Of a stretch of 55,515 nt of DNA, positions 662 through 26,747 are shown one piece after another. The notes beneath the pieces are model-generated. The model did not search any database. It was not told the DNA's origin and saw only the letters and a list, made by a program, of their open reading frames with translations. Positions within the stretch are counted from its first letter, which is position 1. Each line of letters begins with the position of its first letter. The DNA comes from Candidatus Magasanikiibacteriota bacterium. GTDB taxonomy: Bacteria; Patescibacteriota; Patescibacteriia; Magasanikbacterales; UBA922. The stretch spans positions 1 through 55,515 of the forward strand of contig JAAZJX010000002.1 of the NCBI GenBank assembly GCA_012800155.1, in the 5' to 3' direction. Both the position numbers and the translations under genes were made by a program.

Positions 662-735
662 TGGCTCCGAGACATGGATTCGAACCATGATATTCGCCTC
701 CAGAGGGCGAAGTCCTACCATTAGACGATCTCGGA
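662..735 (-). tRNA. tRNA-Gln (anticodon CUG), CCA encoded
   Basis: Manual cloverleaf on the minus strand: acceptor UCCGAGA/UCUCGGA (7 bp, U1-A72), D arm GUCU-AAUGGUA-GGAC, anticodon arm UCGCC-CUCUGGA-GGCGA (anticodon CUG), variable AUAU, T arm CAUGG-UUCGAAU-CCAUG, discriminator G, then CCA. Length 74 nt. Confidence 0.9.
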
Positions 736-2363: not shown

Positions 2364-2476
2364 AATAATTGTTTTTTTCTAAAAAAGTTATTTAAACTAT
2401 CAATATTATATAATAATTATTCTTGACAGTAAAGATGGCTTGTGTAGATGAGATATACACAATTTGAGATTTTCTA

Positions 2477-2505
2477 TTGCCAGAAGTATCAGTTTATGCT
2501 ATAAT
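2477..2505 (+). promoter_or_regulatory. Sigma-70-like promoter for the SWIB gene
   Basis: TTGCCA (2477-2482), 17-nt spacer, TATAAT (2500-2505), about 40 nt upstream of the ATG at 2547. Confidence 0.55.
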
Positions 2506-2546
2506 GTTACTGTTAATTTAAATTTTAGTCATTTAACTAAAAAATT

Positions 2547-2801
2547 ATGCCAAGAAAAATCAATCCAGCTTTGATGAAACCTATGACAGTTTCTTCTGAG
2601 CTAGAAGCCGTTGTCGGCAAAGGACCAATGCCTCGTGCACAAGTAGTAAAAAAACTTTGGGAATATATTAAGAAAAATAATTTGCAAAATCCAGAAAATA
2701 AGAGAAATATTTTTGCAGATGATAAATTATTACCAATTTTCGGTAAGAAAGAAGTAAATATGTTTGAAATGACTAAATTAGTTTCCAAACATTTATCATA
2801 A
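2547..2801 (+). CDS. SWIB/MDM2 domain protein (84 aa)
   Basis: The whole protein matches the SWIB fold pattern: ...PSELEAVVGKGPMPRAQVVKKLWEYIKKNNLQNPENKRNIFADDKLLPIFGKKEVNMFEMTKLVSKHL. Confidence 0.8.
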   Translation: MPRKINPALMKPMTVSSELEAVVGKGPMPRAQVVKKLWEYIKKNNLQNPENKRNIFADDKLLPIFGKKEVNMFEMTKLVSKHLS

Positions 2802-2810
2802 ATAGATAAG

Positions 2811-2850
2811 AAAAATCCCTCCGCTATAATAGCGGAGGGATTTTGTTTTT
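2811..2850. terminator. Bidirectional rho-independent terminator
   Basis: Perfect 10-bp stem TCCCTCCGCT (2816-2825) / AGCGGAGGGA (2831-2840) with loop ATAAT. An A-run lies upstream and a T-run downstream. It sits between convergent genes. Confidence 0.85.
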
Positions 2851-2865
2851 ATTATATTAAAAATT

Positions 2866-4194: not shown

Positions 4195-4272
4195 AAAAAA
4201 TTCAACTTGATTATGTTTGTTTTTTGCTATACAATAATACTACTGTAAATTATCTATAAAATCAACTTTTTT

Positions 4273-5529
4273 ATGGGGAAATATATTATTCAGGGAGGAA
4301 AAACTTTGTCAGGAGTTTTGCCAGTTAGTGGAGCTAAAAATGCTACTTTACCAATTTTAGCTTGTACTTTAATTGCTGAAGGAACATATTTTTTAAATAA
4401 TGTTCCAGCTTTAAAAGATGTGGAAGTTATGATTAAATTGTTGGAACATTTTGGTTTAAAAATTGAAAAAATTGCTCAAAATTCTTATAAAATAATAAAT
4501 AATGGATTGCAAACTTTGGAAGCGCCTTATGAATTAGTTAGTATTATGAGAGCTTCTTTTTTAGTTATGGGACCACTCTTGGCTCATCGAGGTGAAGCTC
4601 GTGTATCTATGCCCGGCGGTTGTGCGATTGGTAATCGACCAATAGATATTCATCTAAAAGGTTTTGAACAATTAGGAGCAACTATAAAAACTGAACATGG
4701 ATTTATTTCAGCCAAAGCTAAAAATTTGATTGGTAAAGAAATTTATCTTGATTTTCCTACTGTTACAGGCACAGAAAATCTTATTATGGCAGCTGTTTTA
4801 TCCAAAGGAATAACTATTTTGAATAATGCTGCGCGCGAACCAGAAGTAGAAGATTTAGGTAATTTTTTAAATAAAATGGGAGCGAAGATTACTGGTTTGG
4901 GCACAGATAGAATTATTATTGAAGGAGTAGAAAAATTATTTCCTTGTGAATATAATATTATTCCTGATCGAATTGAAGCTGGAACTTTTTTAATTTTATC
5001 TGCTTTGACTGGAGGAAATATTGTGATTAAGGGAGTTAATATGGAACATTTAACTAGTTTTAAAACTAAATTAGAAGAAATAGGCATAAATTTTAAAATT
5101 AATGGTGATGAAGTTCAAGTTCAAGCTGATCTTAATAATTTTAAACCAACTAATATAATAACTTTACCTTATCCTGGTTTTCCAACTGATCTTCAAGCTC
5201 AAACAATTGTTTTACTTGCTATGATTAAAGGAAATAGTGAGATGAAAGAAACAATTTTTGAAAATCGTTTTAGACATGTTCCTGAACTCAATCGTATGGG
5301 CGCAAATATAAAAATAGAAGGCAATGTAGCCAGTATTAACGGACCAACAAATTTTCAAGGTGCTGAAGTTGAAGCTACTGATTTAAGAGCTGGCGCTTGT
5401 CTTGTGATTGCTGGATTGATTTCTTCTAATACTACAATTCTTAATAATATTGAACACATTGAACGCGGTTATGAAAATTTAGTAGAAAGATTACAAGCAA
5501 TTGGCGCAGAAATTAAAAAAAGTGAATAA
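4273..5529 (+). CDS. murA: UDP-N-acetylglucosamine 1-carboxyvinyltransferase
   Basis: [23 protein letters not shown]-terminus, active-site loop [12 protein letters not shown] with the catalytic Cys, and the C-terminal HIERGYE motif. Confidence 0.95.
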
Positions 5530-5541
5530 ATTATAAAATAT

Positions 5542-6174
5542 ATGAAACAAGATTATACTTCTGAACAAAAAAATTTTATTAATTATATTTCTAAAAAAGT
5601 GAGAAATTTATTTTTAAATTATCCTGAACCAGCTCATGGAATAGATCATATTGAAAGAGTTGTGAATTGGGCTAAAGAAATTGCTAAAAAAGAAAATGCT
5701 CGTAGTATTTTTTTGTGTGAATTATCTGCTTGGTTGCATGATATTGGACGAACAAGAGAAGATAATCCAGGAGAAAATACTAGAAAACATCATGAATTAT
5801 CTTATGAAATGTTACGAGAATGGTTTCGTGAAGATGAAAATTTTGCTATTTTGAATGATGAAGAAAAGAAAGAATTATTATATGCAGTTAGATATCATTG
5901 GAATAATGCTGCTGATGATTATGATACAGCTTGGATTTTACGCGATGCAGATAAATTAGATATTTTTGGTAAACAAGGTCTTGATCGAGCTTGGAAATTT
6001 ATGAAAGATAATGATGCGCTTTGGAATCAACATTTACGCAATATGTCAGATTATTTTGCTTATGTACACACTGATACAGCTAAAAAAATTATTAAAGACA
6101 ATAATTTTCAAACTATGAGTAAGGAAGTTTATAGAGATTATTTGAAATCAAAGATAAAACCAGTTGAATTATGA
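5542..6174 (+). CDS. HD-domain metal-dependent phosphohydrolase
   Basis: H...HD signature (HGIDHIERV ... WLHDIGR) with downstream His/Asp ligands (RKHHE, RDADKLD). Confidence 0.7.
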   Translation: MKQDYTSEQKNFINYISKKVRNLFLNYPEPAHGIDHIERVVNWAKEIAKKENARSIFLCELSAWLHDIGRTREDNPGENTRKHHELSYEMLREWFREDENFAILNDEEKKELLYAVRYHWNNAADDYDTAWILRDADKLDIFGKQGLDRAWKFMKDNDALWNQHLRNMSDYFAYVHTDTAKKIIKDNNFQTMSKEVYRDYLKSKIKPVEL

Positions 6175-7229
6175 AGTCAAGAGGGAAAATTTTAGTAGCA
6201 ATGTCTGGTGGTGTGGATTCTTCGGTTGTTGCAGCTTTATTAGTAAAACAAGGTTATGATGTTACTGGCGCTTTTATGATTAATTATAATGAAACTGATG
6301 GTGATTGTTGGCGTGGAGATTATCAAGATGCAGTGCGAGTGGCAGCAAAATTAAATATTCCCTTATTACGATTAGATTTTACTAAAGAATATAAAGAAAA
6401 AGTTTTGGATTACATGTATGCTGAATATGAAAAAGGACGAACACCAAATCCAGATGTACTTTGTAATAAATTTGTTAAATTTGGAGTATGGCTGGATAAA
6501 ATAAAAGAATTAGGTTTTGATAAAATTGCGACTGGACATTATGCTACTATAAAACAAAAATTTTCAAAGTCAAAAGTTAAAATTTACAATCTAATTAGAG
6601 CTAAAGATGAGAATAAAGATCAAACTTATTTTTTACACCAACTCAATCAAGAACAATTAAGTCAAATTTTGTTTCCTTTGGGAAAATATACCAAATCAGA
6701 GGTGCGTAAATTAGCTAAGAAATTTGCTTTACCAACTTCAACTAAAGAAGAGAGTATGGGAATTTGTTTTATAGGAGAAGTACCAATAAAAGAATTTTTA
6801 GAAAATAAAATAAAAACAAAATCTGGTGATATTATATTATCTACTACTGGAGAAAAAATTGGTGAACATGATGGATTAGCTTTTTATACGCTTGGACAAC
6901 GACATGGTTTTTCTCAAACTGGTGGCACTAAACCATTATTTGTAGTAGGAAAAGATCAGACGACTAATCAATTATTAGTTGGCTATGAAGATGATTCTAG
7001 ATTATGGACAAAAGAAATTGAAGTGGAAGATTTTCATTGGATTGCTGGAATTAAACCAAAATTTCCTTTACCAGTTAAAGTTAGATTGCGTCATCGTCAA
7101 GAATTACAAAATTGTATTGTAGAAAATAATAAAATTATTTTTAAAAAATCTCAACGCGCAGCTACTCCAGGTCAATTTGCGGTTATTTACAAAAACCGAG
7201 TTTGTCTGGGCGGGGGAGTAATAAAATAA
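6171..7229 (+). CDS. mnmA: tRNA-specific 2-thiouridylase (tRNA U34 2-thiolation)
   Basis: PP-loop VAMSGGVDSSV, catalytic Cys motifs PNPDVLCNK and MGICFIGE. The ATGA start overlaps the upstream stop. Confidence 0.92.
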   Translation: MKSRGKILVAMSGGVDSSVVAALLVKQGYDVTGAFMINYNETDGDCWRGDYQDAVRVAAKLNIPLLRLDFTKEYKEKVLDYMYAEYEKGRTPNPDVLCNKFVKFGVWLDKIKELGFDKIATGHYATIKQKFSKSKVKIYNLIRAKDENKDQTYFLHQLNQEQLSQILFPLGKYTKSEVRKLAKKFALPTSTKEESMGICFIGEVPIKEFLENKIKTKSGDIILSTTGEKIGEHDGLAFYTLGQRHGFSQTGGTKPLFVVGKDQTTNQLLVGYEDDSRLWTKEIEVEDFHWIAGIKPKFPLPVKVRLRHRQELQNCIVENNKIIFKKSQRAATPGQFAVIYKNRVCLGGGVIK

Positions 7230-7233
7230 AAAT

Positions 7234-7362
7234 ATGAATACTGTAAATTATGTTGGCGTAGAGCAGCCATCATTAGTTCCTAATATGTTAGTCTCTGGTT
7301 TGGGAATATTTTTGTTGGTGGGAGTAATAATTTTTATTGCTTTCAAATATATAAAAGATTAA
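7234..7362 (+). CDS. Small hypothetical membrane peptide (42 aa), below the ORF-track size cutoff
   Basis: The ATG at 7234 is 5 nt after the mnmA stop. Translation is MNTVNYVGVEQPSLVPNMLVSGLGIFLLVGVIIFIAFKYIKD, with one clear TM helix and a positively charged C-terminus. There is no homology evidence. Confidence 0.3.
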   Translation: MNTVNYVGVEQPSLVPNMLVSGLGIFLLVGVIIFIAFKYIKD

Positions 7363-7586
7363 ATATTGTTATTTTGAATAAAGTGAGTTGAATGAAATTA
7401 TTGTGTTTAAAAATAAGCAAGAAAGATCTTCTATATATTTTTTAATAAAAGACTTTTAAGTTTTACTTTGTTTTGCTCAGGATGACAGGGTAACTATTTT
7501 GACTTTATTAGATAAACTGGCTAAGATATAATAAAATTAAAAAATAAAAAATTAATCATATTATAAATAATTTGAATAAGTAATTT

Positions 7587-9506
7587 ATGCTTACTTCTAA
7601 ACAACTTCGTCAAAAATATTTAGAATTTTTTAAATCTAAGGGTCATGCGATTATTCCTTCAGCTTCTTTGATTCCTGAAAATGATCCTACGACACTTTTT
7701 ACTAGCGCTGGAATGCAACCAATGATTCCTTTTTTGTTAGGAGAAAGTCATCCAGCTGGTAAAAGAATTGCTGATTCTCAAAAGTGTTTTCGTACTCAAG
7801 ATATTGAGGCTGTGGGTGATAATCGTCACACTATATTTTTTGAAATGTTAGGAAATTGGTCTTTGGGAGATTATTTTAAAAAAGAACAAATTGATTGGAT
7901 GTTTGAATTTTTGATAAAAGAAATTGGTCTTGATCCTAATAAATTATTTATTACTTGTTTTCGAGGAGATGCAGAAATTAATATTCCTCGTGATGAGGAA
8001 GCAGCTAAATTATGGCAAGATAAATTTACTAGTATTGGTATAGAAGCTAAAATTGTTGATAATGCTGAAGAAAAAGGTTTGCAAGATGGAAAAATATTTT
8101 ATTATGATGCTACAAAAAATTGGTGGAGTCGCGCTGGTATTCCAGAAAAAATGCCAATTGGTGAGCCGGGTGGTCCAGATAGTGAAATGTTTTGGGATTT
8201 TGGTTCAGCGTTAGGTTTACACGAAAAATCTTTATGGAAAGATCAGCCTTGCCATGTTAATTGTGATTGTGGTCGTTTTATGGAAATTGGTAATAATGTT
8301 TTTATGCAATATATAAGAACAGCTGAGGGTTTTGAAGAACTAAAACAAAAAAATATTGATTTTGGTGGAGGATTGGAGAGAATAATGGCTGCTTTGAATA
8401 ATAATTCAGATATGTTTGCTATTGATTTATTTACTAAAGTTAAAAATAAATTAGAAGAACTAACTAACAAAAAATATAATGAAAGTGAAAAAATCACTTA
8501 TGCTTTTCGGGTTATTTTGGATCATTTACGAGCAGCTACTTTTTTGATTGCTGATGGAGCGATTCCTTCAAATAAAGATCAAGGTTATTTTACTAGACGA
8601 ATAATTCGTCGTTCAGTTCGCTTTGCTCGAGATCTAGGTATTAATAATAATTTTTGTTCAGAAATTTCTAAACTTTATATTGAAGAATATCAAGAAGCTT
8701 ATCCAGATTTAATAAAGAAAAAAGATTATATTTTGCGTGAATTACAAACTGAAGAAGAAAAGTTTAGAAAAACTTTGGAAGATGGTTTGAAAGAATTTGA
8801 AAAATTATTAAAAGGTTTTCAAATAGCTCAAGAAAAAACTGGTCAAAAAATTACTGAGATTTCTGGTAAACAGGCTTTCAAACTTTATGATACTTATGGT
8901 TTCCCTTTGGAAATGACTGAAGAATTAGCTAAAGAAAATAATTTAATTATTGATAAAAAAGGTTTTGCTGAAGCTTTTGCCAAACATCAAGAACTTTCTC
9001 GTGTTGGCGCTGAACAAAAATTTAAAGGCGGTCTAGCAGATGATTCAGAACAATCTACTAAATATCATACTGCCACACACTTACTTTTGGCTGCACTTCG
9101 TCATGTATTAGGAGCAGATATTGTTCAAAAAGGAAGTAACATTACTGCTGAGCGTTTGCGTTTTGATTTTAATTGGCCAGAAAAATTGACCACTGAACAA
9201 ATTAAAGCTGTAGAAGATTTAGTTAATCAAAAAATTGCTGAAAAAATTCCTGTTACTATGATGGAAATGCCTAAAACTGAAGCTAAAGATATTGTTACTG
9301 TAAGATCATTTGATTTAGAAAAATATGGTGAGATGGTGAAAGTATATAAGATTAGTGATCCTTTAGCAGGTTCGGAGCAGGTTTTCAGTGCAGAATTTTG
9401 TGGTGGTCCTCATGTAGAAAATACTGGTGTACTTGGTCATTTTAAAATTATTAAAGAAGAAGCTTCTAGTGCTGGAGTGAGAAGGATTAAGGCGATATTA
9501 GAGTAA
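7587..9506 (+). CDS. alaS: Alanine--tRNA ligase (short form, no C-Ala domain)
   Basis: Class II AlaRS N-terminus (FTSAGMQPMIPF, NWSLGDYFK). Editing-domain metal motifs HxxxH (TATHLLLAALRH) and CxxxH (FCGGPHV). The protein ends at residue 639, just after the editing domain. Confidence 0.9.
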   Translation: MLTSKQLRQKYLEFFKSKGHAIIPSASLIPENDPTTLFTSAGMQPMIPFLLGESHPAGKRIADSQKCFRTQDIEAVGDNRHTIFFEMLGNWSLGDYFKKEQIDWMFEFLIKEIGLDPNKLFITCFRGDAEINIPRDEEAAKLWQDKFTSIGIEAKIVDNAEEKGLQDGKIFYYDATKNWWSRAGIPEKMPIGEPGGPDSEMFWDFGSALGLHEKSLWKDQPCHVNCDCGRFMEIGNNVFMQYIRTAEGFEELKQKNIDFGGGLERIMAALNNNSDMFAIDLFTKVKNKLEELTNKKYNESEKITYAFRVILDHLRAATFLIADGAIPSNKDQGYFTRRIIRRSVRFARDLGINNNFCSEISKLYIEEYQEAYPDLIKKKDYILRELQTEEEKFRKTLEDGLKEFEKLLKGFQIAQEKTGQKITEISGKQAFKLYDTYGFPLEMTEELAKENNLIIDKKGFAEAFAKHQELSRVGAEQKFKGGLADDSEQSTKYHTATHLLLAALRHVLGADIVQKGSNITAERLRFDFNWPEKLTTEQIKAVEDLVNQKIAEKIPVTMMEMPKTEAKDIVTVRSFDLEKYGEMVKVYKISDPLAGSEQVFSAEFCGGPHVENTGVLGHFKIIKEEASSAGVRRIKAILE

Positions 9507-9588
9507 AGTTTATTGATGATTTTTGATTTATAAAAATTAAAATTTTTACTTTATGTGTTTTTTTGAAAGAGTTTTTAGGTTTATCAAG

Positions 9589-9597
9589 TTATCCACA
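9589..9597 (+). promoter_or_regulatory. Perfect DnaA-box 9-mer TTATCCACA
   Basis: Exact match to the TTATCCACA consensus, in a 438-bp AT-rich intergenic region. Confidence 0.4.
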
Positions 9598-9830
9598 TTT
9601 ATAGTATAATTTGTTCAGAGGTAAAAATAAAATGAAACCTTTTTTAATTATCTTTATTCATTTCGTCATTAATTTACTAAATATTTTATAGTTGGTTTTT
9701 CTGGAATTTCTTTTTATATAAATATTAGGTCTATAAACAAGATATAAAATAAATTGAAAAAAATATAAAATAGAGTTTTTATTATTTAATAAATAAAAAA
9801 TTGAAATTAATAAAAATTAGCTAAATTAAC

Positions 9831-9839
9831 TTATTCACA
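9831..9839 (+). promoter_or_regulatory. DnaA-box-like 9-mer TTATTCACA
   Basis: Fits the relaxed consensus TTATNCACA. Confidence 0.35.
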
Positions 9840-9859
9840 GCCTAGCTCTTTATATTCTC

Positions 9860-9888
9860 TTGACATAGTTTTAAGATTAATGTAAAAT
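9860..9888 (+). promoter_or_regulatory. Sigma-70-like promoter for infA
   Basis: TTGACA (9860-9865), 17-nt spacer, TAAAAT (9883-9888), about 55 nt upstream of the infA ATG. Confidence 0.6.
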
Positions 9889-9898
9889 GTCGCTAGGT

Positions 9899-9931
9899 TT
9901 ATCCACTCTAATCAAAATTGACAGTGGATTA
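9899..9931 (+). promoter_or_regulatory. Inverted pair of DnaA-box-like sequences, or a 5'-UTR hairpin, in the infA leader
   Basis: TTATCCACT (9899-9907) and AGTGGATTA (9923-9931, reverse complement TAATCCACT). ATCCACT/AGTGGAT forms a 7-bp inverted repeat with a 15-nt spacer, downstream of the predicted -10. Confidence 0.35.
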
Positions 9932-9944
9932 AAATTACCTTGTC

Positions 9945-10163
9945 ATGTCAAAAAATACAGAAGTAGTGGAAGTCAGAGGAACAATTGAAGAATTGTTACC
10001 CGGTGCCACTTTTCGTTTAAAATTAGAAAACGACCATGAGATTATTGCTCATTTGTCTGGAAAAATGAGAATGAATAGAATCAGATTATCAGTCGGAGAT
10101 GAAGTCAAAGTTGAAATTACTCCTTACGATTTAACTAAAGGTCGGATTACTTACAGATTTTAA
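9945..10163 (+). CDS. infA: Translation initiation factor IF-1
   Basis: 72-aa S1/OB-fold protein: [65 protein letters not shown]. Confidence 0.95.
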
Positions 10164-10170
10164 AGATTAT

Positions 10171-10237
10171 CAACCAGTGCGGTGTAGTTGGACATTTGGT
10201 CTGACGTCGATATCGCGGCAGTGGTTGGTATTTTTTT
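10171..10237 (+). terminator. GC-rich imperfect hairpin plus T-run between infA and rpmJ (terminator or attenuator)
   Basis: CAACCA (10171-10176) pairs with TGGTTG (10222-10227). The stem continues with mismatches (GTGCGGTG / CGCGGCAG), then TTTTTTT (10231-10237). Locally it is much more GC-rich than its surroundings. Confidence 0.5.
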
Positions 10238-10261
10238 ACACTATAAAATAAATTGATAAAT

Positions 10262-10399
10262 ATGAAAGTTAGATCTTCTGCAAAAGTAAGATGTCCAAAA
10301 TGTAAAACCGTTAGACGAAGAGGTGTAGTTTATGTTATTTGTGAAGTACCAAAACATAAACAAAGACAAGGTACTAAGCAGAGAAAAAAAGTTGCTTAA
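10262..10399 (+). CDS. rpmJ: 50S ribosomal protein L36 (bL36), with a short basic C-terminal extension
   Basis: Below the ORF-track cutoff. Translation is [45 protein letters not shown], carrying the C-x2-C...C-x-x-x-x-H zinc-ribbon pattern of L36. It sits in the canonical position between infA and rpsM. Confidence 0.88.
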
Positions 10400-10413
10400 T
10401 TAATTATATTATT

Positions 10414-10800
10414 ATGAGAGTATCAGGCATAAATATTCCAAAAGAAAAACAAATTGAGACCGCCTTGACCTATGTGTATGGTATTGGTCTTACAACTTCC
10501 AAGAAAATTTTAGCATTGGCTAATGTTAATCCTACAACTAGAGTTAAAGATCTTACCACTGAACAAGAAGATTTGATTCGTAATATTGTTGAAAAACAAA
10601 ATAAGACTGAAGGTGATTTACGTCGTGAAGTAGCTAGTAATATTAAACGATTGAAAGATATTAAATGTTATCGTGGTATTAGACATACCAAGCGTTTGCC
10701 AGTTCGTGGACAAAGAACAAAGACTAATAATCGTACAATTCGTGGTAACAAAAGAAATTTAGCAACCAGTGGTAAAAAACCACCTGCTCAAAAGACTTAA
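10414..10800 (+). CDS. rpsM: 30S ribosomal protein S13 (uS13)
   Basis: [33 protein letters not shown]..., with CYRGIRH and a basic tail. Position in the operon is conserved. Confidence 0.95.
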
Positions 10801-10834
10801 TTTTAATGTTAAAGAATTTTGAAGAATAATAAAT

Positions 10835-11233
10835 ATGGCTAAGCAAGTAAAGAAAAATATTTCTAAAAAGAAAAAAGTTACTCGTCAAGTTAGTCACGGT
10901 AGAGCTTATATTCAAGCAACTTTTAATAATACAATAGTTTCTGTTACTGATCAAAATGGTGATGTTTTAGGTTGGGCTAGCGCTGGTATGGCTGGTTTTA
11001 AAGGTCCAAAAAAAGCCACACCTTATGCTGCTGGACAAGTTGTTAAAAAAGTTTTAGAAGCTATTGAACCAGTTGGTATCAAAGAAGTTAATGTATATGT
11101 AAAAGGAATTGGTGGTGGTCGAGAAGGAGCAATTAGAGCTTTTAATTCTAATGGTGTTCAAGTATTATCCATTAAAGATGTTACTCCGATTCCACATAAT
11201 GGTTGTCGTCCACCAAAGAGACGCAGAGTTTAA
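10835..11233 (+). CDS. rpsK: 30S ribosomal protein S11 (uS11)
   Basis: GRAYIQATFNNTIVSVTDQNGDVLGWASAGMAGFKG ... TPIPHNGCRPPKRRRV. Confidence 0.95.
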   Translation: MAKQVKKNISKKKKVTRQVSHGRAYIQATFNNTIVSVTDQNGDVLGWASAGMAGFKGPKKATPYAAGQVVKKVLEAIEPVGIKEVNVYVKGIGGGREGAIRAFNSNGVQVLSIKDVTPIPHNGCRPPKRRRV

Positions 11234-11244
11234 TTTTGAATATT

Positions 11245-11868
11245 ATGGGAAAATATATTGGTCCAAAAAATAAAATTGCAAGACGTTTCGGCGTTAATTT
11301 AGGTTTAAAAAGTGAAGCTACAAAAGTAGCTCGTCGTTTAGGACAAATGCCTGGTGTGCATGGTCCAAAGAAAAGAGCCAAAGGCGGTTCTTCTTATTCC
11401 AAACAATTAATTGAAAAACAAAAAGCAAAATTTATTTATGGTATTCGTGAAGCTCAGTTTAGTCGTTATGTAAAAGAAGCTAGTAGTATGAAAGGTGATT
11501 CTGGTGTTAATTTACAAACTATTTTAGAAACCAGATTAGATAATGTAATTTATCGTATGGGATTTGCTCTTACAAGAGCACAAGCCAGACAAATGGTCAA
11601 TCATGGTATGTTTACAGTTAATGGCAAAAATTTAAATATCCCTTCTCATATTGTGAAAGTAGGGGATGTAATTGCTGTTCGTGATAAAAAATTAAAAAAA
11701 TCTTTGTTCTTAGATCTTGAAGAAAAATTAACTAAAGTTCAATTACCAAGTTGGATTAGTGTTGATCCAAAAACTAAATCTGGAAAAATTTTAAATTTAC
11801 CAACTGAACAAGATTTTGATAAAATTTTTGATGTGAAACTCATTATTGAGTATTTCTCAACTCGTTAA
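11245..11868 (+). CDS. rpsD: 30S ribosomal protein S4 (uS4)
   Basis: I moved the start from the ORF-track 11203 to the ATG at 11245 (MGKYIGPKNKIARRFG...). The upstream extension overlaps the rpsK 3' end. S4 domain YRMGFALTRAQARQMVNHGMFTVNG. Confidence 0.9.
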   Translation: MGKYIGPKNKIARRFGVNLGLKSEATKVARRLGQMPGVHGPKKRAKGGSSYSKQLIEKQKAKFIYGIREAQFSRYVKEASSMKGDSGVNLQTILETRLDNVIYRMGFALTRAQARQMVNHGMFTVNGKNLNIPSHIVKVGDVIAVRDKKLKKSLFLDLEEKLTKVQLPSWISVDPKTKSGKILNLPTEQDFDKIFDVKLIIEYFSTR

Positions 11869-11905
11869 TTAGCCAAATTATTTGGCGCTAACATATAATA
11901 ATTAT

Positions 11906-12676
11906 ATGGAGGATATACTTTTACCGACTACAATTGAATTTACAGATGGTGAACAACCAAATATTGGAAAAGTGGTAATAACACCCTGTCAAAAAGGTTA
12001 TGGTACAACTTTGGGAAACGCGCTAAGAAGAGTTTTGTTATCATCCTTACCAGGAGCAGCTATTGAATCTGTAAAAATTGATGGTGTACAACATGAATTT
12101 TCAGCGATTGATGGTGTTCAAGAAGATGTTGTAGAAATAATTTTAAATTTAAAACAAGTAGCTGTTCGTTGTTTTTCAGATGAGCCTGTAGTTTTATCTC
12201 TTACCAAAAAAGGTAAAGGTGATATTACTGCTGCTGATTTTGAAAAAAATTCTGATATAGAAATTGTCAATCCAGATTTGAAAATTATGACTGTTACCGA
12301 TGCAAAGAAAGAAATTAATATGGAAGTTGTTATTGGAAAGGGTCGTGGTTATGTTCCAGTAGAAGAAAAAGATTCCAAAAATATGGATTTAGGAACAATT
12401 GTTATTGACTCACTCTATACACCAATTAGAGATATTGGTTATAATGTAGAATCTACTCGTGTGGGAGATGTAGTTGATTATGAAAAATTAGTTTTGAATA
12501 TTGAAACTAATGGCACAATTACTCCTAAAAAAGCTATTGAGCAGTCTACTAAAATTTTAATGGATCATTTTTCTTTAATTTTGGACATGGCTAGTGATAT
12601 GAGTCATACAGAAACAGAAGAAGTTATTGAAGAAAAACCAAAAAAGAGTACTAAGAAATCTAAAAAAGCTGAATAA
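11906..12676 (+). CDS. rpoA: DNA-directed RNA polymerase subunit alpha, N-terminal (assembly) domain only
   Basis: I moved the start to the ATG at 11906 (MEDILLPTTIEF...). Alpha-NTD motifs are present (GTTLGNALRRVLLSSLPGAA, GRGYVP, TPIRDIGY). The protein ends after about 256 aa with a Glu/Lys-rich tail. No alpha-CTD-like sequence is visible. Confidence 0.88.
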   Translation: MEDILLPTTIEFTDGEQPNIGKVVITPCQKGYGTTLGNALRRVLLSSLPGAAIESVKIDGVQHEFSAIDGVQEDVVEIILNLKQVAVRCFSDEPVVLSLTKKGKGDITAADFEKNSDIEIVNPDLKIMTVTDAKKEINMEVVIGKGRGYVPVEEKDSKNMDLGTIVIDSLYTPIRDIGYNVESTRVGDVVDYEKLVLNIETNGTITPKKAIEQSTKILMDHFSLILDMASDMSHTETEEVIEEKPKKSTKKSKKAE

Positions 12677-21195: not shown

Positions 21196-23427
21196 TTATA
21201 ATTTTTCCATTGTCCAGAGGGATAATCTTTCTGGTTCTGCAAAACGGTTTTTATAATCAGGATTACCCATTGTAATAATAATAAATTTTTTATTATCACT
21301 TTTTCTTTCTATAATCATTGCTAAACAAGCGCCTGCTTCATTTAAATATCCAGTTTTGCTAGTAATAATATTAAAAGGTAAACCATCTTTGTTCATTAGT
21401 TCATTACTATTATAATCATAATGTCTAGGTTTATTGTCAAGATCTTTGATTTCATTATAATCATAATATTTTGTTCCTAAATATTTTTTCATGTCAATAT
21501 TTTTAGAAACATTTTTGAAAATTTTTAGATATTCTCTAGCTGTAGTAACATTACCAAGATCATAACCAGAAACATCAGTAAATTTTGTTTTGTTCAATCC
21601 CCAGTCAATAGCTTGTTTATTCATTTCTTTGATAAATAGTTTTTCATCTGGCTCTACATAATTGACTAGCATTTTGGCAGGGGTATTGATAGAGGAGACT
21701 AACATAGAATTTAACAAATCTTTATTATAAATTTGTTCACCTTCAACAATTCTAAAATTATGGTAAACAGATTGATGACGATCAGCTTGATAAGTATTTT
21801 TTCCTTCTATATTTATTCCTTTTTTAAATAATAAATAACCAGTCATTACTTTAGTAAAACTAGCCATAGGTCTTATTTCATCAATATTTTTTCCAGTTAA
21901 AATTTCTTCAGTTTCATAATCAGCTACTAAATAAGTGTTTATATCAGTAACAAAACCATTATTTATGTAAACACTTTCTTCTTCTGGAGTAAGGTTTATT
22001 TTAGTAGTATCTGATTTAGTGAGAGTGTTAATTTCTTTAGTAATCATTCTAGAAGGAAGATAAAGAGGCTGTCCAGTAGGAATATTTATACCTGTTAATT
22101 GATCTATCCAAACAATATTAGTCCATTTGAATCCATAAGCATTAAAAACCTGTTCATCAAAAATATGTCTTTTTTTACCATTTTCTACTACATAAATTTT
22201 ATTATCATTTTCAATACCAAAAATACTTCCATCTTTTAATTTTACTAATTCACCAATTTTATAATTAGTTAATTCTTTTAAATTTATTTTTTCTTCAATT
22301 AAATTTGGAAAATTTACTTTGGCAATATCAGGATCAGTGATAGGGAAGAGAGTATTATCTTTGAGATAATATAAATTATTATTTTCTTTTACACGCAAAA
22401 GTTTACCAACAAAATTTGTAGTATCCACAGTAATTTTTTGTCCTATAATATAGCCAGCTAAATCAGATTCATTAACATCTAAAATTTCATCAGGATGATA
22501 GCCTAAAGTTTTTACAGTATTTGCATTTTCAAAAGGACGAATAGTATCAAAGTCAACTAAATAATATTGTGAATTTTGTCTGAGAATAGAATAATTTGGA
22601 AAATTAAGTTCAATTCCATCTGGGTAATTAGCTAGTTCAGAATCACTTACTTCTATTACCATTTTGATATCAAAACGGCTCAAAAGTACACTCATATTTT
22701 TTATATTGCGTTTTTTACCATCTTGGATTAAATAAATATTTGCAGAAGTTTGAGCTTTTAACAAAGAACCATCAGGATATACTTGACTAAACCAATCATT
22801 CCAGAGTTTCCAAAAATTTTTATTACCCTGTATATGTGGTGTATAAGTATATAAAAATGCCGTAGCTTTATTTTTTGGTATTATTAATTGATTATCTATA
22901 ATATAAGAAATATTTGGTCTTTTAATCCAAATTTCTTTGGACATATTTTCATAATACCAGCGTATAATACCTGCGGCAGCATCAATTTGTTTTCCAAAAC
23001 CAATGTTATTTAAATAAGTTGTACAGGTCCAACCACAACCATCAGATATTCCATAACCAGTTGCTCCATTTAATTGTTTTTCTGTGGGATTTTTAGCAGT
23101 AATGAGACTTTGTTCTTTTTGAAGTTTAACTAAAAGATATTTTGGATTTATTTGATGTTCTCGAGCTGCGCGAGCGATAATATCTGAGGCAGTTCTGGTA
23201 ATTCCTTCTTTATCTTTAGTTTTATAATTAGCTAAAAAACTATTTTTATCTACTAAAAAAGCCTGTATATCAGCTCTTTCCATAGATTGCCAATTTTGCA
23301 TTTCTTCGTCAGAAATAAGATTGTGAGGATTGAAATTATCTTCAGTTGTAGCTAAAATATGGGTAGGAAAAATAAAAAAACCCAACAATATAATAAATAA
23401 AGTTATTTTTTTAGCTAATTTATACAT
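21196..23427 (-). CDS. Secreted D-alanyl-D-alanine carboxypeptidase (peptidase S11, PBP5-like) with a large N-terminal extension
   Basis: I moved the start to the ATG at 23427 (MYKLAKKITLFIILLGFFIFPTHILA signal peptide). The C-terminal roughly 240 aa carry SxxK (MASFTKVM), SxN (VSSINTP) and KTG (SKTGYLNEAG). The N-terminal roughly 480 aa are unassigned. Confidence 0.75.
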   Translation of the reverse strand: MYKLAKKITLFIILLGFFIFPTHILATTEDNFNPHNLISDEEMQNWQSMERADIQAFLVDKNSFLANYKTKDKEGITRTASDIIARAAREHQINPKYLLVKLQKEQSLITAKNPTEKQLNGATGYGISDGCGWTCTTYLNNIGFGKQIDAAAGIIRWYYENMSKEIWIKRPNISYIIDNQLIIPKNKATAFLYTYTPHIQGNKNFWKLWNDWFSQVYPDGSLLKAQTSANIYLIQDGKKRNIKNMSVLLSRFDIKMVIEVSDSELANYPDGIELNFPNYSILRQNSQYYLVDFDTIRPFENANTVKTLGYHPDEILDVNESDLAGYIIGQKITVDTTNFVGKLLRVKENNNLYYLKDNTLFPITDPDIAKVNFPNLIEEKINLKELTNYKIGELVKLKDGSIFGIENDNKIYVVENGKKRHIFDEQVFNAYGFKWTNIVWIDQLTGINIPTGQPLYLPSRMITKEINTLTKSDTTKINLTPEEESVYINNGFVTDINTYLVADYETEEILTGKNIDEIRPMASFTKVMTGYLLFKKGINIEGKNTYQADRHQSVYHNFRIVEGEQIYNKDLLNSMLVSSINTPAKMLVNYVEPDEKLFIKEMNKQAIDWGLNKTKFTDVSGYDLGNVTTAREYLKIFKNVSKNIDMKKYLGTKYYDYNEIKDLDNKPRHYDYNSNELMNKDGLPFNIITSKTGYLNEAGACLAMIIERKSDNKKFIIITMGNPDYKNRFAEPERLSLWTMEKL

Positions 23428-23497
23428 ATTTTTTACTAAGATATTATAACAAATTTTAACAGTTTTGTGAACTGTGAACAAAATTTATTTAAGTTAC

Positions 23498-23526
23498 TTG
23501 ACAATGAACTTGAAAAATGCTATTTT
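23498..23526 (+). promoter_or_regulatory. Extended -10 sigma-70-like promoter of the GC-rich insert gene
   Basis: TTGACA (23498-23503), 17-nt spacer ending in TGC (TGn extension), then TATTTT (23521-23526). Confidence 0.55.
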
Positions 23527-23530
23527 AAAG

Positions 23531-23549
23531 TGTTACTATGTATGTAACA
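23531..23549 (+). promoter_or_regulatory. Operator-like inverted repeat at the predicted transcription start
   Basis: TGTTAC (23531-23536), 7-nt spacer, GTAACA (23544-23549). It lies immediately downstream of the -10, the classic position for a repressor. Confidence 0.4.
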
Positions 23550-23611
23550 TTTTGTTTTTGTTCTTTTTATTTTTGCGTAAAAATAATACGCTTAACCAAT
23601 GGAGGTAAAAA

Positions 23612-24943
23612 ATGAATAGTCAGCTACTGAACGGACAATTTCCTTATCTTCAGTCTGGTCAGGTTTATGCTGACTGGACTGGAGCGGCTTTGCCACCCGT
23701 GTCTTTAATTGACGAGTGGTCAGATCATTTACGTAATATTCTGTTAGGAAATCCTCATTCTGGTCACGAACCATCATTGCGGGCAGCTGAAGAAATTGAA
23801 GCAGCTCGGGAAGCTGTACTTCAGTTTTTAAATGCAGACCCAAAAGAATATGAGGTTATTTTCACTAGCGGAGCAACGGAAGCCATCAGACTCTTAGAGC
23901 ATTACAACTTTGGGGTTGGTGGACAGCTTCTTCTTACGGCTGATAATCATAATTCAATAAATGGATTACGAGAAACAGCTAAGAGATCTGGAGCTATATT
24001 TACTTATGCTCCGATCAAAGGTGTAGGAGAAGGATTGGTTCTTGACACGCAGGAATTAACCCGTCTGCTCAATTATCCACGTTCTAGATATGGAAATAGA
24101 CTTTTTGCTTATCCTGCAAAGAGCAATTATTCCGGTAATTTGCATTCTTTGCATTGGGTAGATTATGCCCATAGACGTGGATGGGATGTCCTTTTGGACG
24201 CAGCAGCTTTCTTGGCTAATGATCAGTTGGATTTAAGTCAGGTGAAACCTGATTTTGTTCCGATCAGTTTTTATAAGCTGTTTGGATTTCCAACTGGTGT
24301 TGGGGCTTTGGTGATTCATCGTCGGATGTTTACCAAGCTTCACAAGAAATGGTTCACGGGTGGTCCCATCATGTTGGTATCAGTTCAACGTGATTTCTTT
24401 GTACCAGATGCTCGTGGAGCAACTCGGTATGAAGATGGTAGCCCGAACTTCGGGATGATTGGGGCTGTGAAGAACGGACTGGATTTTCTAAATTCTCTTG
24501 GAGGAGATCGCAAAGCTCATGCAGTAGCAATAGCAAATGATGTCTGGGATATTCTTTATGAAACAAAAGAAAATAGTAATGCCCAGATTATCATTCATAC
24601 TCCTAGAGGAAATGATATTATCGCCTTCAGTGTGGTGAAGGATGGTAAGATTATTAATCCAGGACTGTTTGAAAAAATGACAAGTGATAGGGGTTTTTTT
24701 GTTCGCGTGGGTTGTTTTTGTAATCCAGGCGTCAACGAAAAAATACATGGATACTCTGTAGATGAAGTTATTCCGCGTGCAACTGACGAAGTTATTTTTG
24801 GTTTGGAAGAAATCAAAAGAAGGCGTCAATATTTTGCGAGAACAGCGGTAGGCTCTATTAGAGCATCCTTTGGTTATTCTAATAGCACTATTGATGTTAT
24901 TAGAATTTCAGGACATATGAAAAATATCTTGCGAGAGATTTAA
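23612..24943 (+). CDS. Class V aminotransferase-fold PLP enzyme resembling the N-terminal (cysteine-desulfurase-like) domain of molybdenum cofactor sulfurase; no MOSC domain
   Basis: Strong SD (GGAGG, 23601-23605) ahead of the ATG at 23612. Motifs: LGNPHSGHEPS, VIFTSGATEAIRLL, NHNSINGLRE, YPAKSNYSG, LLDAAAF, PISFYKLFGFPTGVGALVIH (Schiff-base Lys) and GSIRASFGY. G+C is far above the flanking DNA. Confidence 0.75.
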   Translation: MNSQLLNGQFPYLQSGQVYADWTGAALPPVSLIDEWSDHLRNILLGNPHSGHEPSLRAAEEIEAAREAVLQFLNADPKEYEVIFTSGATEAIRLLEHYNFGVGGQLLLTADNHNSINGLRETAKRSGAIFTYAPIKGVGEGLVLDTQELTRLLNYPRSRYGNRLFAYPAKSNYSGNLHSLHWVDYAHRRGWDVLLDAAAFLANDQLDLSQVKPDFVPISFYKLFGFPTGVGALVIHRRMFTKLHKKWFTGGPIMLVSVQRDFFVPDARGATRYEDGSPNFGMIGAVKNGLDFLNSLGGDRKAHAVAIANDVWDILYETKENSNAQIIIHTPRGNDIIAFSVVKDGKIINPGLFEKMTSDRGFFVRVGCFCNPGVNEKIHGYSVDEVIPRATDEVIFGLEEIKRRRQYFARTAVGSIRASFGYSNSTIDVIRISGHMKNILREI

Positions 24944-24974
24944 TTTCTCTTACTTTCATTGGTTGAAAAAGGGG

Positions 24975-25003
24975 AAAGAGTGTTCCACACAAACACTTTT
25001 TCT
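24975..25003 (+). terminator. Weak hairpin plus T-run in the 3' UTR of the insert gene (leaky terminator or 3' stabiliser)
   Basis: AGTGTT (24979-24984) / AACACT (24992-24997), loop CCACACA. The stem is extended by A-T pairs, and TTTTT overlaps its 3' side. Confidence 0.35.
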
Positions 25004-25008
25004 CCTAC

Positions 25009-25072
25009 AACCTCTAACAATGATTTTGTTACTGATGAGTCCAAAAAAGTTTAAGATAAAGGACGAAAGGTT
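25009..25072 (+). ncRNA. Hammerhead self-cleaving ribozyme, type III topology
   Basis: Layout: stem III AACCU (25009-25013) / AGGUU (25068-72); cleavage-site C17 at 25014; stem I UAACAA (25015-20) / UUGUUA (25026-31) with loop UGAUU; core CUGAUGA (25032-38); stem II GUCC (25039-42) / GGAC (25061-64) with an 18-nt A-rich loop; GAA (25065-67). All invariant core positions are satisfied, along with A15.1-U16.1, G10.1-C11.1 and an NUH triplet (CUC). Confidence 0.85.
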
Positions 25073-25076
25073 AATT

Positions 25077-25112
25077 AAAAAACATCTTAATTTAATTAAG
25101 ATGTTTTTTGTT
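25077..25112. terminator. Bidirectional rho-independent terminator between the insert and the histidine kinase gene
   Basis: Perfect 25-nt palindrome AACATCTTAATTTAATTAAGATGTT (25081-25105), flanked by an A-run (25077-80) and a T-run (25106-11). Confidence 0.75.
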
Positions 25113-25117
25113 TTTTA

Positions 25118-26317
25118 TTATTTTTTAATTGGTAAAAAGATAGTAAATTTTGTACCTTTGTTTAATTTACTTTCTACTGTAATTTTTCCATGATGACCAT
25201 CTATAATTTTCTTTATAATAAATAATTCTAAACCACTACCATCAGTATACATATTTTTAGCATTAGAAGCTCGGCTAAATTTTTTGAACATTTTTTTGAG
25301 TTCTTTTTGTGGTATTCCTATACCATTATCACTTACAGTAAAAGAAATATATTTGTTGTCTGATTTTGTTTCAATTTTAATTTTACCTTGTTTCGTTCGT
25401 ACATCTCTTGTTTCAGGAGTAGTACCAATTGAAGGAGTGTATTTTAAAGCATTATCTATTAAATTGAAGATTGCTTGACTTAAATATTGTTCATAGCCAA
25501 GAATAATTGGTAATTTTTGTTTAGGTTTTTTCCATTCAATAATTGTTTGTCTTTTTTCAGCTTCAAATTTTATTTCAGTAATAGCTTTTTTTATTAAGTT
25601 TTCTAGTTGTATTTCTTGAGCATCTTTTTTATTGATTGCCAAACCAACAGTATCTAATTCTGAAGTTACTAAAATATCAGAAATAATTTGTTGAAGTTTT
25701 TTACTTTTTTCAAAAGCATTATTAATATAAATTTTCTTTTCTTTTGAAGAAATTTTATCAAAATCACCTTCATTCATCATTTCCATTGTATTTTTAATTA
25801 CACTTACTGGTGTACGAAGTTGATGAGAAGCTACATCTAAAAATTCTGAACGCATTTTTAATAATTTTTCTAAATGTAAATTTTTCTTTTTTAAACTACG
25901 AGTTTGTTCTTCAACTTTATCTTCTAATTTTTCAGTTAATTCTTCTAAAGCTTCTTTGGCTTTTTTTTCAGAAAAGCTTGATTCAATAATTTTCTCTGTA
26001 CTTTTGTTAAAAAAATATCCATAAACAGTAGCAAAAACAAAAATAGTAATAATTACTGATTTTAAAATTTCACCATCTATGATTAAAGATATAATTAATA
26101 ATATAGAAACAAGTAATATAGTAATTACTAAATATTGGAAAAAAAGACATTGATTAAATTTAGAAGTACAATATTGACATCTTTTTGATGGAGGAGCATT
26201 TAATGTTCTGGCTGTAAAACAATTTTTATTTACATAATTTGGACAACCTAATTTATTGGAAGAACAATTTTCAGAACAATTAATACAATTTGAATTATTA
26301 TTTGTTAGGGGTTTCAT
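25118..26317 (-). CDS. Sensor histidine kinase with a Cys-rich N-terminal segment and two TM helices; no cognate response regulator in the window
   Basis: HisKA H-box (ASHQLRTPVSVI). HATPase N/G boxes (IDNALKYTP, DNGIGIP, GSGLELF). Coiled-coil linker. The N-terminal 57 aa hold 8 Cys (C11, 14, 18, 25, 33, 47, 50, 57; CINCSENC...GCP). Confidence 0.85.
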   Translation of the reverse strand: MKPLTNNNSNCINCSENCSSNKLGCPNYVNKNCFTARTLNAPPSKRCQYCTSKFNQCLFFQYLVITILLVSILLIISLIIDGEILKSVIITIFVFATVYGYFFNKSTEKIIESSFSEKKAKEALEELTEKLEDKVEEQTRSLKKKNLHLEKLLKMRSEFLDVASHQLRTPVSVIKNTMEMMNEGDFDKISSKEKKIYINNAFEKSKKLQQIISDILVTSELDTVGLAINKKDAQEIQLENLIKKAITEIKFEAEKRQTIIEWKKPKQKLPIILGYEQYLSQAIFNLIDNALKYTPSIGTTPETRDVRTKQGKIKIETKSDNKYISFTVSDNGIGIPQKELKKMFKKFSRASNAKNMYTDGSGLELFIIKKIIDGHHGKITVESKLNKGTKFTIFLPIKK

Positions 26318-26747
26318 TTTTTTGTTTTTTTAGAAGTTTTACAAAGAGAGCATAACTAAGAGTTGCTACACAAAAACCAGCAAAACAAGCTAAAAATAAT
26401 AATAATGACATAATTAAAAGCCAAATCCATCCCAAAGTAGTAAATTTATTAAAATAAACAGCTAAGAATCCAAGTAATAATAAAATTGCTGTCATACCTG
26501 AAACAAAATTTAATTCAGTAGATTCTTTTTGGATTATGAGAGTTTGTTTTTTGAGAATTTTTTTAACAAAGAAAACATGAATTTGATAAGGGATATTTAA
26601 TTTTATATTAATAGTTCCTAAAGCTAACATAATTATAACTGCTAAAACATACCAAGGATTTTTAGTAAAAAAACCAATAATAATTAAAATTCCATAAAGA
26701 GCTCGAGAAAATCTTAAAGATTTATCATAGATAGAACATTGGGGCAT
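26298..26747 (-). CDS. Polytopic membrane protein (about 4 TM, possibly DUF4395-like), translationally coupled to the kinase
   Basis: Four hydrophobic helices. The 3' end overlaps the kinase start by 20 nt. The family assignment is from memory only. Confidence 0.4.
   Translation of the reverse strand: MPQCSIYDKSLRFSRALYGILIIIGFFTKNPWYVLAVIIMLALGTINIKLNIPYQIHVFFVKKILKKQTLIIQKESTELNFVSGMTAILLLLGFLAVYFNKFTTLGWIWLLIMSLLLFLACFAGFCVATLSYALFVKLLKKQKNETPNK

Follow-up and report, generated by a model that had tools for sequence, protein, structure and literature searches.

A 55,515-nt stretch of DNA from a Candidatus Magasanikiibacteriota bacterium (contig JAAZJX010000002.1; the whole stretch is called the window below) carries, at 23498-25112, a gene for a stand-alone cysteine-desulfurase-like enzyme resembling the N-terminal domain of MOCOS, the eukaryotic molybdenum cofactor (Moco) sulfurase. 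The gene is followed by a stem-loop, a type III hammerhead ribozyme and a terminator. The interpretation we hold to be the probable one, with real room for doubt, is that the gene was acquired, that it occupies its own transcription unit, and that the 3' end of its mRNA is set by ribozyme cleavage. A first-pass annotation, made from the letters of the window, had described a foreign unit of one gene that brings along a promoter-like site, a hammerhead and a terminator. That description is supported, each of the listed features is present where it was placed, and the annotation was right in kind. Correction is due on the age of the gene, on the meaning of one dyad and on emphasis: the hammerhead, treated there as an accessory, is the most informative part.

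Composition, synteny and distribution of the gene

The window has 27.3% G+C (1332-nt windows average 27.2%, standard deviation 3.4), and the open reading frame (ORF) in question, at 40.8%, is the top-ranked 1332-nt stretch within it. Its G+C at third codon positions (GC3) is 0.295, against 0.08-0.21 (about 0.12) in 46 other ORFs of the window. The four hand counts from which foreign composition was first argued (53.3, 48.3, 38.3 and 23.3%) are exact, and the ends then proposed for the shift, about 23590 and about 25075, fit the computed profile, in which G+C begins to climb at about 23590-23615 and falls off over about 24950-25075. Host-like composition is found in the promoter (24%), the 5' leader (25%) and the terminator (12.5%).

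The identical 443-aa protein, with the same neighbours, occurs on at least 24 contigs from independent assemblies, including a biogas-fermenter metagenome and an unrelated sequencing run; misassembly is thereby excluded without read mapping, and the earlier worry about an assembly chimera can be set aside. Nor is the insertion specific to this genome: three related lineages carry the gene between the same genes, that is, between a Peptidase_S11 (DD-carboxypeptidase) gene and a response regulator-HisKA-DUF4395 operon. Contigs used for comparison are denoted by locus numbers. The syntenic copies are 82% (L003-L005), 75% (L007/L008) and 77% (L009) identical to the window protein, and the proteins encoded on either side of them share 77-93% identity with their window counterparts. 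In L003, L007 and L009 the gene has 51.6, 53.1 and 48.8% G+C between flanks of 29-31%; GC3 runs from 0.60 in L006, a copy in a gene array described below, through 0.59 (L007), 0.53 (L003) and 0.49 (L009) to 0.30 in the window. The first-pass annotation had named, as the finding to set against foreign origin, relatives with the same gene at the same locus and host-like composition; same gene and same locus hold for three lineages, but the composition of their copies is less host-like, not more. As three lineages share the locus with GC-richer copies, the acquisition is older and shared, and the window copy is the most ameliorated one. The window copy also has the longest protein branch, and trees of the gene and of the flanking genes are compatible with each other. 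The module of DUF4395 and histidine kinase genes is widespread in the Patescibacteria (candidate phyla radiation, CPR); at 18 more distant loci with the module (L017-L034), none has the gene beside it.

The simplest history, and the one proposed, is a single acquisition by a common ancestor of four or more related lineages, with the gene landing between the DD-carboxypeptidase gene and the DUF4395-histidine kinase(-response regulator) operon. The source would have had about 52-54% G+C, and drift towards host composition would have gone furthest in the window lineage.

Homologues that are 50-57% identical stand alone in unrelated neighbourhoods (Magasanikbacteria, Komeilibacteria, Yanofskybacteria and other CPR contigs), each with a consensus-like promoter with extended -10. 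They have 54-60% G+C (GC3 0.62-0.76) in hosts of 35-47%. Deviant composition and patchy, context-independent distribution together mark the gene as a horizontally acquired islet, and the foreign origin first proposed is supported on both counts.

Divergence across the locus is uneven. Between the window and the L003 group (21196-26747), synonymous divergence (dS) is 0.36-0.38 in the histidine kinase and DUF4395 genes, 1.1 in the carboxypeptidase gene and 1.5 in the cassette gene, which suggests a recombination breakpoint at or near the cassette.

Two observations concern the neighbouring sensor genes. The response-regulator gene of the relatives (L004 5380-5790) is cleanly deleted in the window, at 25073-25120, with no copy elsewhere in the 55 kb; the window histidine kinase, which has a cysteine-rich N-terminus, is thus an orphan. 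At L020, L025, L026, L027, L031 and L033 a different, SufS-like Aminotran_5 gene (its product 27-30% identical to the window protein) lies just upstream of the DUF4395-histidine kinase module, a hint that this sensor is functionally tied to sulfur mobilisation.

The window otherwise encodes housekeeping genes typical of CPR (ribosomal proteins, tRNA synthetases, cell-wall enzymes, MreB/C, ClpB), and the unit lies between its DD-carboxypeptidase gene on one side and its DUF4395-histidine kinase genes on the other. No integrase is found among the annotated window ORFs, and no flanking direct repeats or target-site duplications longer than chance are found in the window. The sole ORF that resembles a recombinase, a fragment of serine-recombinase type, is at the left end of the window, about 23 kb from the unit. 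The first-pass annotation likewise reported no recombinase and no obvious direct repeats. That left end (1-735) is a second GC-rich island of about 47-50% G+C: a minus-strand ORF from near 440 (MKYFLYIRKSTDEDDRQVLSLDAQ..., with a serine-recombinase-like N-terminus) leaves the window there and adjoins a tRNA gene at 665-735(-), and the segment looks like an integrated element at a tRNA gene.

The hammerhead and the untranslated regions

The features of the unit are collected in the table. The hammerhead reads AACCU-C / UAACAA-UGAUU-UUGUUA / CUGAUGA / GUCC-18 nt-GGAC / GAA / AGGUU, in which loops close stems I and II while stem III is open; every position of the core has the canonical nucleotide, including the A15.1-U16.1 pair and C17 (25013-25014, 25032-25038, 25065-25068). 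Stem I has undergone compensatory changes in the syntenic relatives (AACAA/UUGUU, AGCAA/UUGCU, AGUAA/UUACU). With canonical core and covarying stems, the motif noted in the first pass is confirmed. Scanning metagenomes for the core together with stems II and III returned six further copies on other contigs. A covariance model built from ten sequences then gave two more, 3' of homologues 52-53% identical to the window protein at unrelated loci: L044, between TsaD and LeuRS, and L045, a Komeilibacteria contig. Stem II differs in these two (GCUC/GAGC and GCCC/GGGU).

Across the 12 hammerheads, all 180 pair cells are Watson-Crick or G-U, as compared with 24-49% in slid controls, and 7 of the 15 pairs (five of six in stem I, two of four in stem II) show changes on both sides, stem II and the 3' strand of stem III having been pre-set by the search pattern in six of the 12 sequences. 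Each of the 12 is preceded by a hairpin of 6-19 bp whose end lies 6-11 nt (in the window 8 nt) ahead of the predicted cleavage site. The window stem-loop covaries among relatives and is kept in L006. The window hammerhead scores 81.8 bits in its own covariance model and 16.5 bits against Rfam RF00008 (E-value mode; gathering threshold 48.5), with relatives at 29.6-35.1 bits, and Rfam in gathering mode returns only a tRNA from the window. The hammerhead pattern had no match in viral contigs. No consistent complementarity for a loop I-loop II pseudoknot was evident among the loops, which were checked by eye. No paper linking hammerheads with CPR or with cysteine desulfurases was found in the literature.

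In the mechanism proposed, the transcript would pass through the conserved stem-loop into the hammerhead, which would cleave after C25014. The product would be an mRNA that ends 8 nt beyond the stem-loop in a 2',3'-cyclic phosphate, with release of a ribozyme-terminator fragment; the role would be ribozyme-defined 3'-end formation and insulation. The terminator claimed earlier is borne out by its perfect arms and its place in the minimum free energy (MFE) fold, and its stem covaries in L003, L007 and L009; a generic terminator scan missed it because the stem has fewer than three G-C pairs.

Table. Features of the unit, with positions in the window and the basis of each call
Feature	Position	Strand	Basis
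Putative sigma-70-type promoter, TTGACA, 17 nt, TGc-TATTTT (extended -10)	23498-23526	+	Consensus scan, 10/12 matches plus TG
Dyad TGTTAC-N7-GTAACA at predicted transcript start	23531-23549	+	One match, 0 expected in 100 shuffles
5'-leader hairpin GCGTA-AAAATAA-TACGC, just 5' of ribosome-binding site	23575-23591	+	Covariation in relatives
Invariant box AACCAATGGAGG, including Shine-Dalgarno GGAGG (23601-23605)	23594-23605	+	Invariant in four lineages
Stand-alone 443-aa NifS-like enzyme using pyridoxal 5'-phosphate (PLP), MOCOS/ABA3 N-domain type; PLP lysine K222, catalytic cysteine C370	23612-24943	+	Pfam, BLASTP, AlphaFold (AF2)
Invariant 3' box TCATTGGTTGAA (TCCATTGGTTGAA in relatives), just after stop codon	24956-24967	+	Invariant in window, L003, L007, L009, L006
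3' stem-loop, 15-bp stem, loop CCACACA	24970-25006	+	dG -21.6 kcal/mol, z -5.9
Type III hammerhead	25008-25072	+	Canonical core, covariation
Hammerhead stem III	25009-25013 / 25068-25072	+	
Hammerhead C17 (predicted cleavage between 25014 and 25015)	25014	+	
Hammerhead stem I	25015-25020 / 25026-25031	+	
Hammerhead core CUGAUGA	25032-25038	+	
Hammerhead stem II	25039-25042 / 25061-25064	+	
Hammerhead core GAA	25065-25067	+	
A/T-flanked hairpin terminator, shared with convergent histidine-kinase gene	25076-25110	.	Perfect 16-nt arms 25077-25092 / 25094-25109; in MFE fold

The 3' untranslated region (UTR) at 24950-24964 is 87% complementary over 15 nt to the ribosome-binding-site box (23594-23608). 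Besides the ribosome-binding-site box, the 3' box has a second complement in the 5' strand of hammerhead stem III (24961-24965 / 25008-25012), and there could be a three-way switch coupling translation and cleavage; both boxes are invariant, and so give no covariation for their pairing.

At the 5' end, the TTGACA/TATTTT promoter of the first-pass annotation was recovered by the consensus scan, and L003 and L007 keep both of its hexamers as well as the AAAGTGTTACT that follows them, which makes up the first ~11 nt of the transcript. The dyad, which had been read as operator-like, is present and above chance, but its right arm is conserved in no relative (GTATAC in L007 and L009, absent in L003). 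The dyad is therefore window-specific and an operator role is unsupported. The leader hairpin occupies the same position in the relatives with compensatory changes (GCGCAC/GTGCGC in L007, GTGCAC/GTGCAC in L009, GCGCA/TGCGC in L003), and is the only pairing in the centroid fold. The Shine-Dalgarno sequence is where it had been placed. The 5' regions of distant homologues, when aligned, show no convincing homology, so the promoter is not claimed as part of a mobile unit.

The neighbouring Peptidase_S11 gene was mechanically called from a TTG at 23481 (761 aa); as relatives have 742-743 aa, the ATG at 23427 is the likelier start. With that start, a strong divergent promoter (TTCACA-17-TATAAT + TG, 23471 to 23443) stands back-to-back with the cassette promoter.

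The enzyme

Aminotran_5 (PF00266) is the only Pfam match of the protein (E 1.8e-33, residues 18-429), as the first-pass annotation expected. Identity to the N-terminal domain of MOCOS, ABA3 and HxB is 30-34% over the full domain; BLASTP aligns the entire NifS-like domain with rat MOCOS P0128 at 33% identity (E 3e-55). A human MOCOS sequence served as a probe only, to retrieve authentic database MOCOS proteins with MOSC domains. The motifs listed at the outset, GNPHS, FTSGAT, PISFYKLFGFPTGVGALV and GSIRASFGY, all occur in the protein, and each lines up with its counterpart in authentic MOCOS. K222 (in SFYK) and C370 (in the GCFCNPG loop) are invariant in 55 prokaryotic homologues and four MOCOS proteins. 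The protein stops at residue 443 with no MOSC domain, and neither PF03473 nor PF03476 was found in the 120 nearest homologues; the earlier description as a MOCOS-like NifS domain without MOSC is correct.

All 13 NCBIfam desulfurase models fall below their cutoffs, the best being TIGR01979 sufS (103.7 bits against 475.1). Against solved structures, the sequence match to CsdA/SufS is restricted to the first ~290 residues (6-292), with E about 1e-20. The AlphaFold model is confident (predicted local distance difference test score, pLDDT, 91.5; predicted template modelling score, pTM, 0.92), and the top 50 Foldseek matches to it are all SufS, CsdB, CsdA or Nfs2 (E 1e-30), with template modelling scores of 0.80/0.87 for the best PDB matches, SufS/CsdB. 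The gene is functional and under strong purifying selection, to judge by a dN/dS of 0.05-0.12 in all comparisons. Cysteine-desulfurase chemistry is the best inference for the product, from its family membership. PLP would be bound at K222; sulfur (or selenium) would most likely be taken from cysteine (or selenocysteine) to form a persulfide on C370, and handed to acceptors other than Moco, for example in tRNA thiolation (MnmA) or Fe-S assembly.

Among the ORFs annotated between 765 and 50316 there are no genes for Moco synthesis, molybdoenzymes, SUF or ISC, which bears out the statement that no Moco-biosynthesis or molybdoenzyme gene is visible. The sole obvious sulfur consumer in the window, MnmA (6171-7229), is 16 kb away and unlinked; a tie between it and the enzyme is speculation.

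Gene arrays, alternative accounts and known systems

A donor-like context for the gene is seen in L006, an 8-kb contig (1-8025) of about 52% G+C that comes from a JGI sample of anaerobic-digester type. The L006 copy shares 75% identity with the window protein and 85-88% with the three syntenic ones, and is native-like in composition (53.9% in surroundings of 51.6%). The contig is a tandem array in which six identical 37-nt perfect-palindrome repeats (GTAAGCGTCAGTTCCCAGAACGCGCATTCTGGGAAC), all in one orientation, fill every intergenic gap; one plus-strand gene lies between repeats, each gene with its own 3' hairpin. Homology between L006 and the window clade runs exactly repeat-to-repeat: it starts 5' at the ribosome-binding site and ends 3' after the stem-loop, where the hammerhead begins in the window clade, so that the hammerhead start coincides with the start of the 3' repeat. 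The array abuts an IS21 IstB-like ORF, read from the sequence. The 37-nt repeat had no match in Rfam, in viral contigs or in the other fetched loci. The search for a donor taxon yielded none, since the AMP-binding neighbour in L006 matches at only 40%, to metagenome-assembled genomes of Deltaproteobacteria and Spirochaetes. A phage or plasmid vector is likewise unsupported: the best homologue in phage and plasmid collections, on a Streptomyces megaplasmid, is 36% identical. At L010 (8001-9311), a 57% identical homologue matches its surroundings (GC3 0.88) in a 64% G+C contig with many small unannotated ORFs; the contig looks phage- or element-like.

Hairpin-hammerhead units also follow unrelated GC-rich genes in AT-richer contigs: a DeoC-family aldolase gene in L013 (GC3 about 0.7, contig 43% G+C) and small ORFs in L012, L015 and L016. 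L012 has several GC-rich islands in a 38% G+C contig, and its region 2400-12560 bears the inverted-repeat signature of integron cassette boundaries, with units that open GTTAGCTGAAATA... and close with the complementary ...TACATCAGCTAAC; one unit, from 12520 onwards, has a hairpin and hammerhead on the opposite strand. In L016 (1740-2640), a GC-rich ORF (1806-2426, GC3 0.88) with its own TTGACA promoter has the same 32-nt terminator hairpin, AAAACACTTTTGAAACTCAAGAGTGTTTTTT, on both sides; this could be an insertion at a terminator with duplication. Beyond stem-loop, hammerhead and terminator, the window unit contains no imperfect palindromes. A crude attC scan was negative everywhere, even on L012, which looks positive, and was discarded as uninformative.

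These loci allow a bolder supposition, which we put forward tentatively and think rather unlikely: that GC-rich single-gene units with a 3' stem-loop and type III hammerhead module roam among CPR, with repeat-bounded or attC-bounded arrays (L006, L012) as the store from which AT-rich genomes are repeatedly seeded, the ribozyme serving as a portable 3'-end-forming, insulating device or as a part of the transfer. If so, the ribozyme would let a foreign gene be expressed whatever its landing site, and such a unit would be previously undescribed.

Several points weigh against an acquired gene with a ribozyme-defined 3' end. An empty site was sought with a histidine kinase scan of genome contigs, and nothing nearer than 61% identity was returned, a distance at which synteny is already broken; as no empty site was recovered, the boundaries of the insert and the origin of its AT-rich promoter and leader are not fixed. 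The GC-rich copies of the three syntenic lineages are separated from one another by a dS of at least 1, with host genes at GC3 0.15-0.22, and neutral decay should by then have erased most of the GC3 excess; a one-off acquisition does not predict such persistence. Either the high G+C is maintained, possibly by selection or biased conversion, or an external GC-rich pool may supply replacements for the resident copies. The locus has no linked gene for a sulfur acceptor or partner, and we know of no enzyme assay for any stand-alone member of the family. In the MFE fold of the whole 3' UTR, pairings of GGUUG (24961-24965) with CAACC (25008-25012) and of CUUUC (24953-24957) with GAAAG (25065-69) displace stem III, so that cleavage may be conditional, modulated or inefficient. 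A terminator right after a ribozyme is, moreover, regarded as atypical for self-cleaving RNAs (PMC5737381).

Another account takes the gene as native to CPR, its high G+C being an intrinsic, selected property of the family through codon choice or mRNA structure. At each of the 11 family loci examined the gene exceeds its host in G+C, by 2 to 24 points; GC3 of 0.49-0.59 is retained after dS of at least 1; and most named homologues are from Patescibacteria. The window copy has nevertheless decayed to GC3 0.30, which argues that high G+C is not required; each non-syntenic homologue sits in a different neighbourhood, the gene is missing beside the same histidine kinase module in more distant relatives, the L006 and L010 copies are at native-like composition, and unrelated GC-rich genes bear the same 3' module. 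On this evidence native origin is distinctly unlikely. Site-specific or array-based shuffling, integron-like or palindrome-bounded, would explain the retained GC3 by re-seeding from a GC-rich pool, with hammerhead or repeat as the 3' boundary of a cassette. The repeat-bounded single genes of L006, the homology that runs from repeat to repeat with the hammerhead starting where the 3' repeat does, the integron-like array of L012 with its hairpin-hammerhead unit, and the break in divergence that adjoins the cassette all speak for it. Yet palindrome and repeat scans and Pfam annotation of the window find no repeat, attC-like site or integrase near the unit, the unit has its own promoter, divergences of gene and flanks are broadly congruent, and one such array only has been found; we consider the account doubtful. 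As for an assembly chimera or a very recent, genome-specific insertion, the sharp composition contrast would be expected, but neither can seriously be entertained beside the contigs of different projects with identical protein and neighbours, the synteny in three diverged lineages and the partly ameliorated GC3.

The function of gene and ribozyme can be disputed separately. The protein might be some other fold-type I PLP enzyme, such as a C-S lyase, aminotransferase or epimerase with a small-molecule substrate. The NCBIfam desulfurase models all stay under their cutoffs (sufS, the best, has 104 bits against 475), the L006 neighbours are AMP-binding, CER1-like_C and Aminotran_1_2 proteins, and an acceptor gene is not linked. 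Those neighbours, though, are separate repeat-bounded units; the cysteine loop and the SFYK lysine are invariant and common to MOCOS, and the top structural matches are all SufS, CsdB and CsdA, which leaves a different chemistry improbable. The hammerhead, for its part, might be an inert passenger with no role in gene expression: a terminator follows it, it is absent at four of seven non-syntenic CPR homologue loci, and the MFE fold disfavours stem III. A passenger would hardly be expected to keep a perfect core and compensatory changes in stems I and II although the flanks have diverged, a hairpin-to-cleavage-site spacing fixed in 12 of 12, and its place across about 50% protein divergence; inertness thus seems unlikely. 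An acquired gene with ribozyme-defined 3'-end formation is the reading preferred here. Of its elements, the data show the composition, the synteny, the family assignment and the structure of the hammerhead; cleavage, its consequence for the mRNA and the sulfur acceptor are proposed.

Small symbiont genomes commonly contain foreign genes, and as an island this one is ordinary; what deserves following is the gene-linked stem-loop-hammerhead module, together with the repeat-bounded array. That a hammerhead stays with one enzyme gene despite deep divergence and at different insertion sites is a rare clue to hammerhead function in bacteria, and the fixed geometry of stem-loop, 6-11 nt and cleavage site predicts a precise, hairpin-protected mRNA 3' end. 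Rfam thresholds miss this entire subgroup. CPR bacteria generally have minimal sulfur and cofactor metabolism; a stand-alone MOCOS-type desulfurase is widespread among them, and its acceptor could show how they mobilise sulfur. The unusually persistent GC-richness of the gene, like the L006 array, is a hint that genes may be exchanged by a route not yet recognised.

Among known systems, the enzyme is closest in motifs to MOCOS, ABA3 and HxB, with which it shares GNPHS, (I)FTSGAT, LFxYPAxSNxSG, PISFYK(L/I)FGxPTGxGAL, FEDG, R(T/V)GCFCNxG and GS(I/V)RxSFGY, and it has the same PLP lysine and catalytic cysteine as MOCOS/ABA3. Those proteins have about 790 aa with MOSC_N and MOSC domains, whereas the window protein has 443 aa, neither domain, and a bacterial host. 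With no MOSC domain, and no Moco pathway visible in the window, its acceptor is probably other than Moco. SufS, CsdA and CsdB (group II desulfurases; selenocysteine lyase) are the best structural match, yet identity is only about 21%, the C-terminal part and the insert around residues 380-410 differ in the window protein, and no SufE, SufU or CsdE gene is near the window gene.

The unit resembles an integron cassette in being single-gene and compositionally foreign, and in having a near-identical gene in the L006 array and a fellow unit in the attC-like array of L012. Integron cassettes are promoterless and driven from Pc, with intI at the head of the array; the window unit has its own promoter and terminator, and neither IntI nor a repeat. 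The L006 repeat differs from attC as well: it has 37 nt, is perfectly palindromic and lacks the GTTRRRY consensus. The nearest parallel to the ribozyme is in prophages, where bacterial hammerheads flank single genes or short gene blocks and processing of the transcript to single-gene length was proposed; hardly any bacterial hammerhead has a known biological role (Perreault et al. 2011, PMC3088659). Like those, the window hammerhead is canonical and stands beside an individual, mobile-looking gene. It differs as a single type III copy, sub-threshold in Rfam, in the 3' UTR of a chromosomal CPR gene with no integrase or phage genes nearby; it always comes after a stem-loop, and here before a terminator, and it accompanies a single enzyme family whose proteins have diverged by about 50%.

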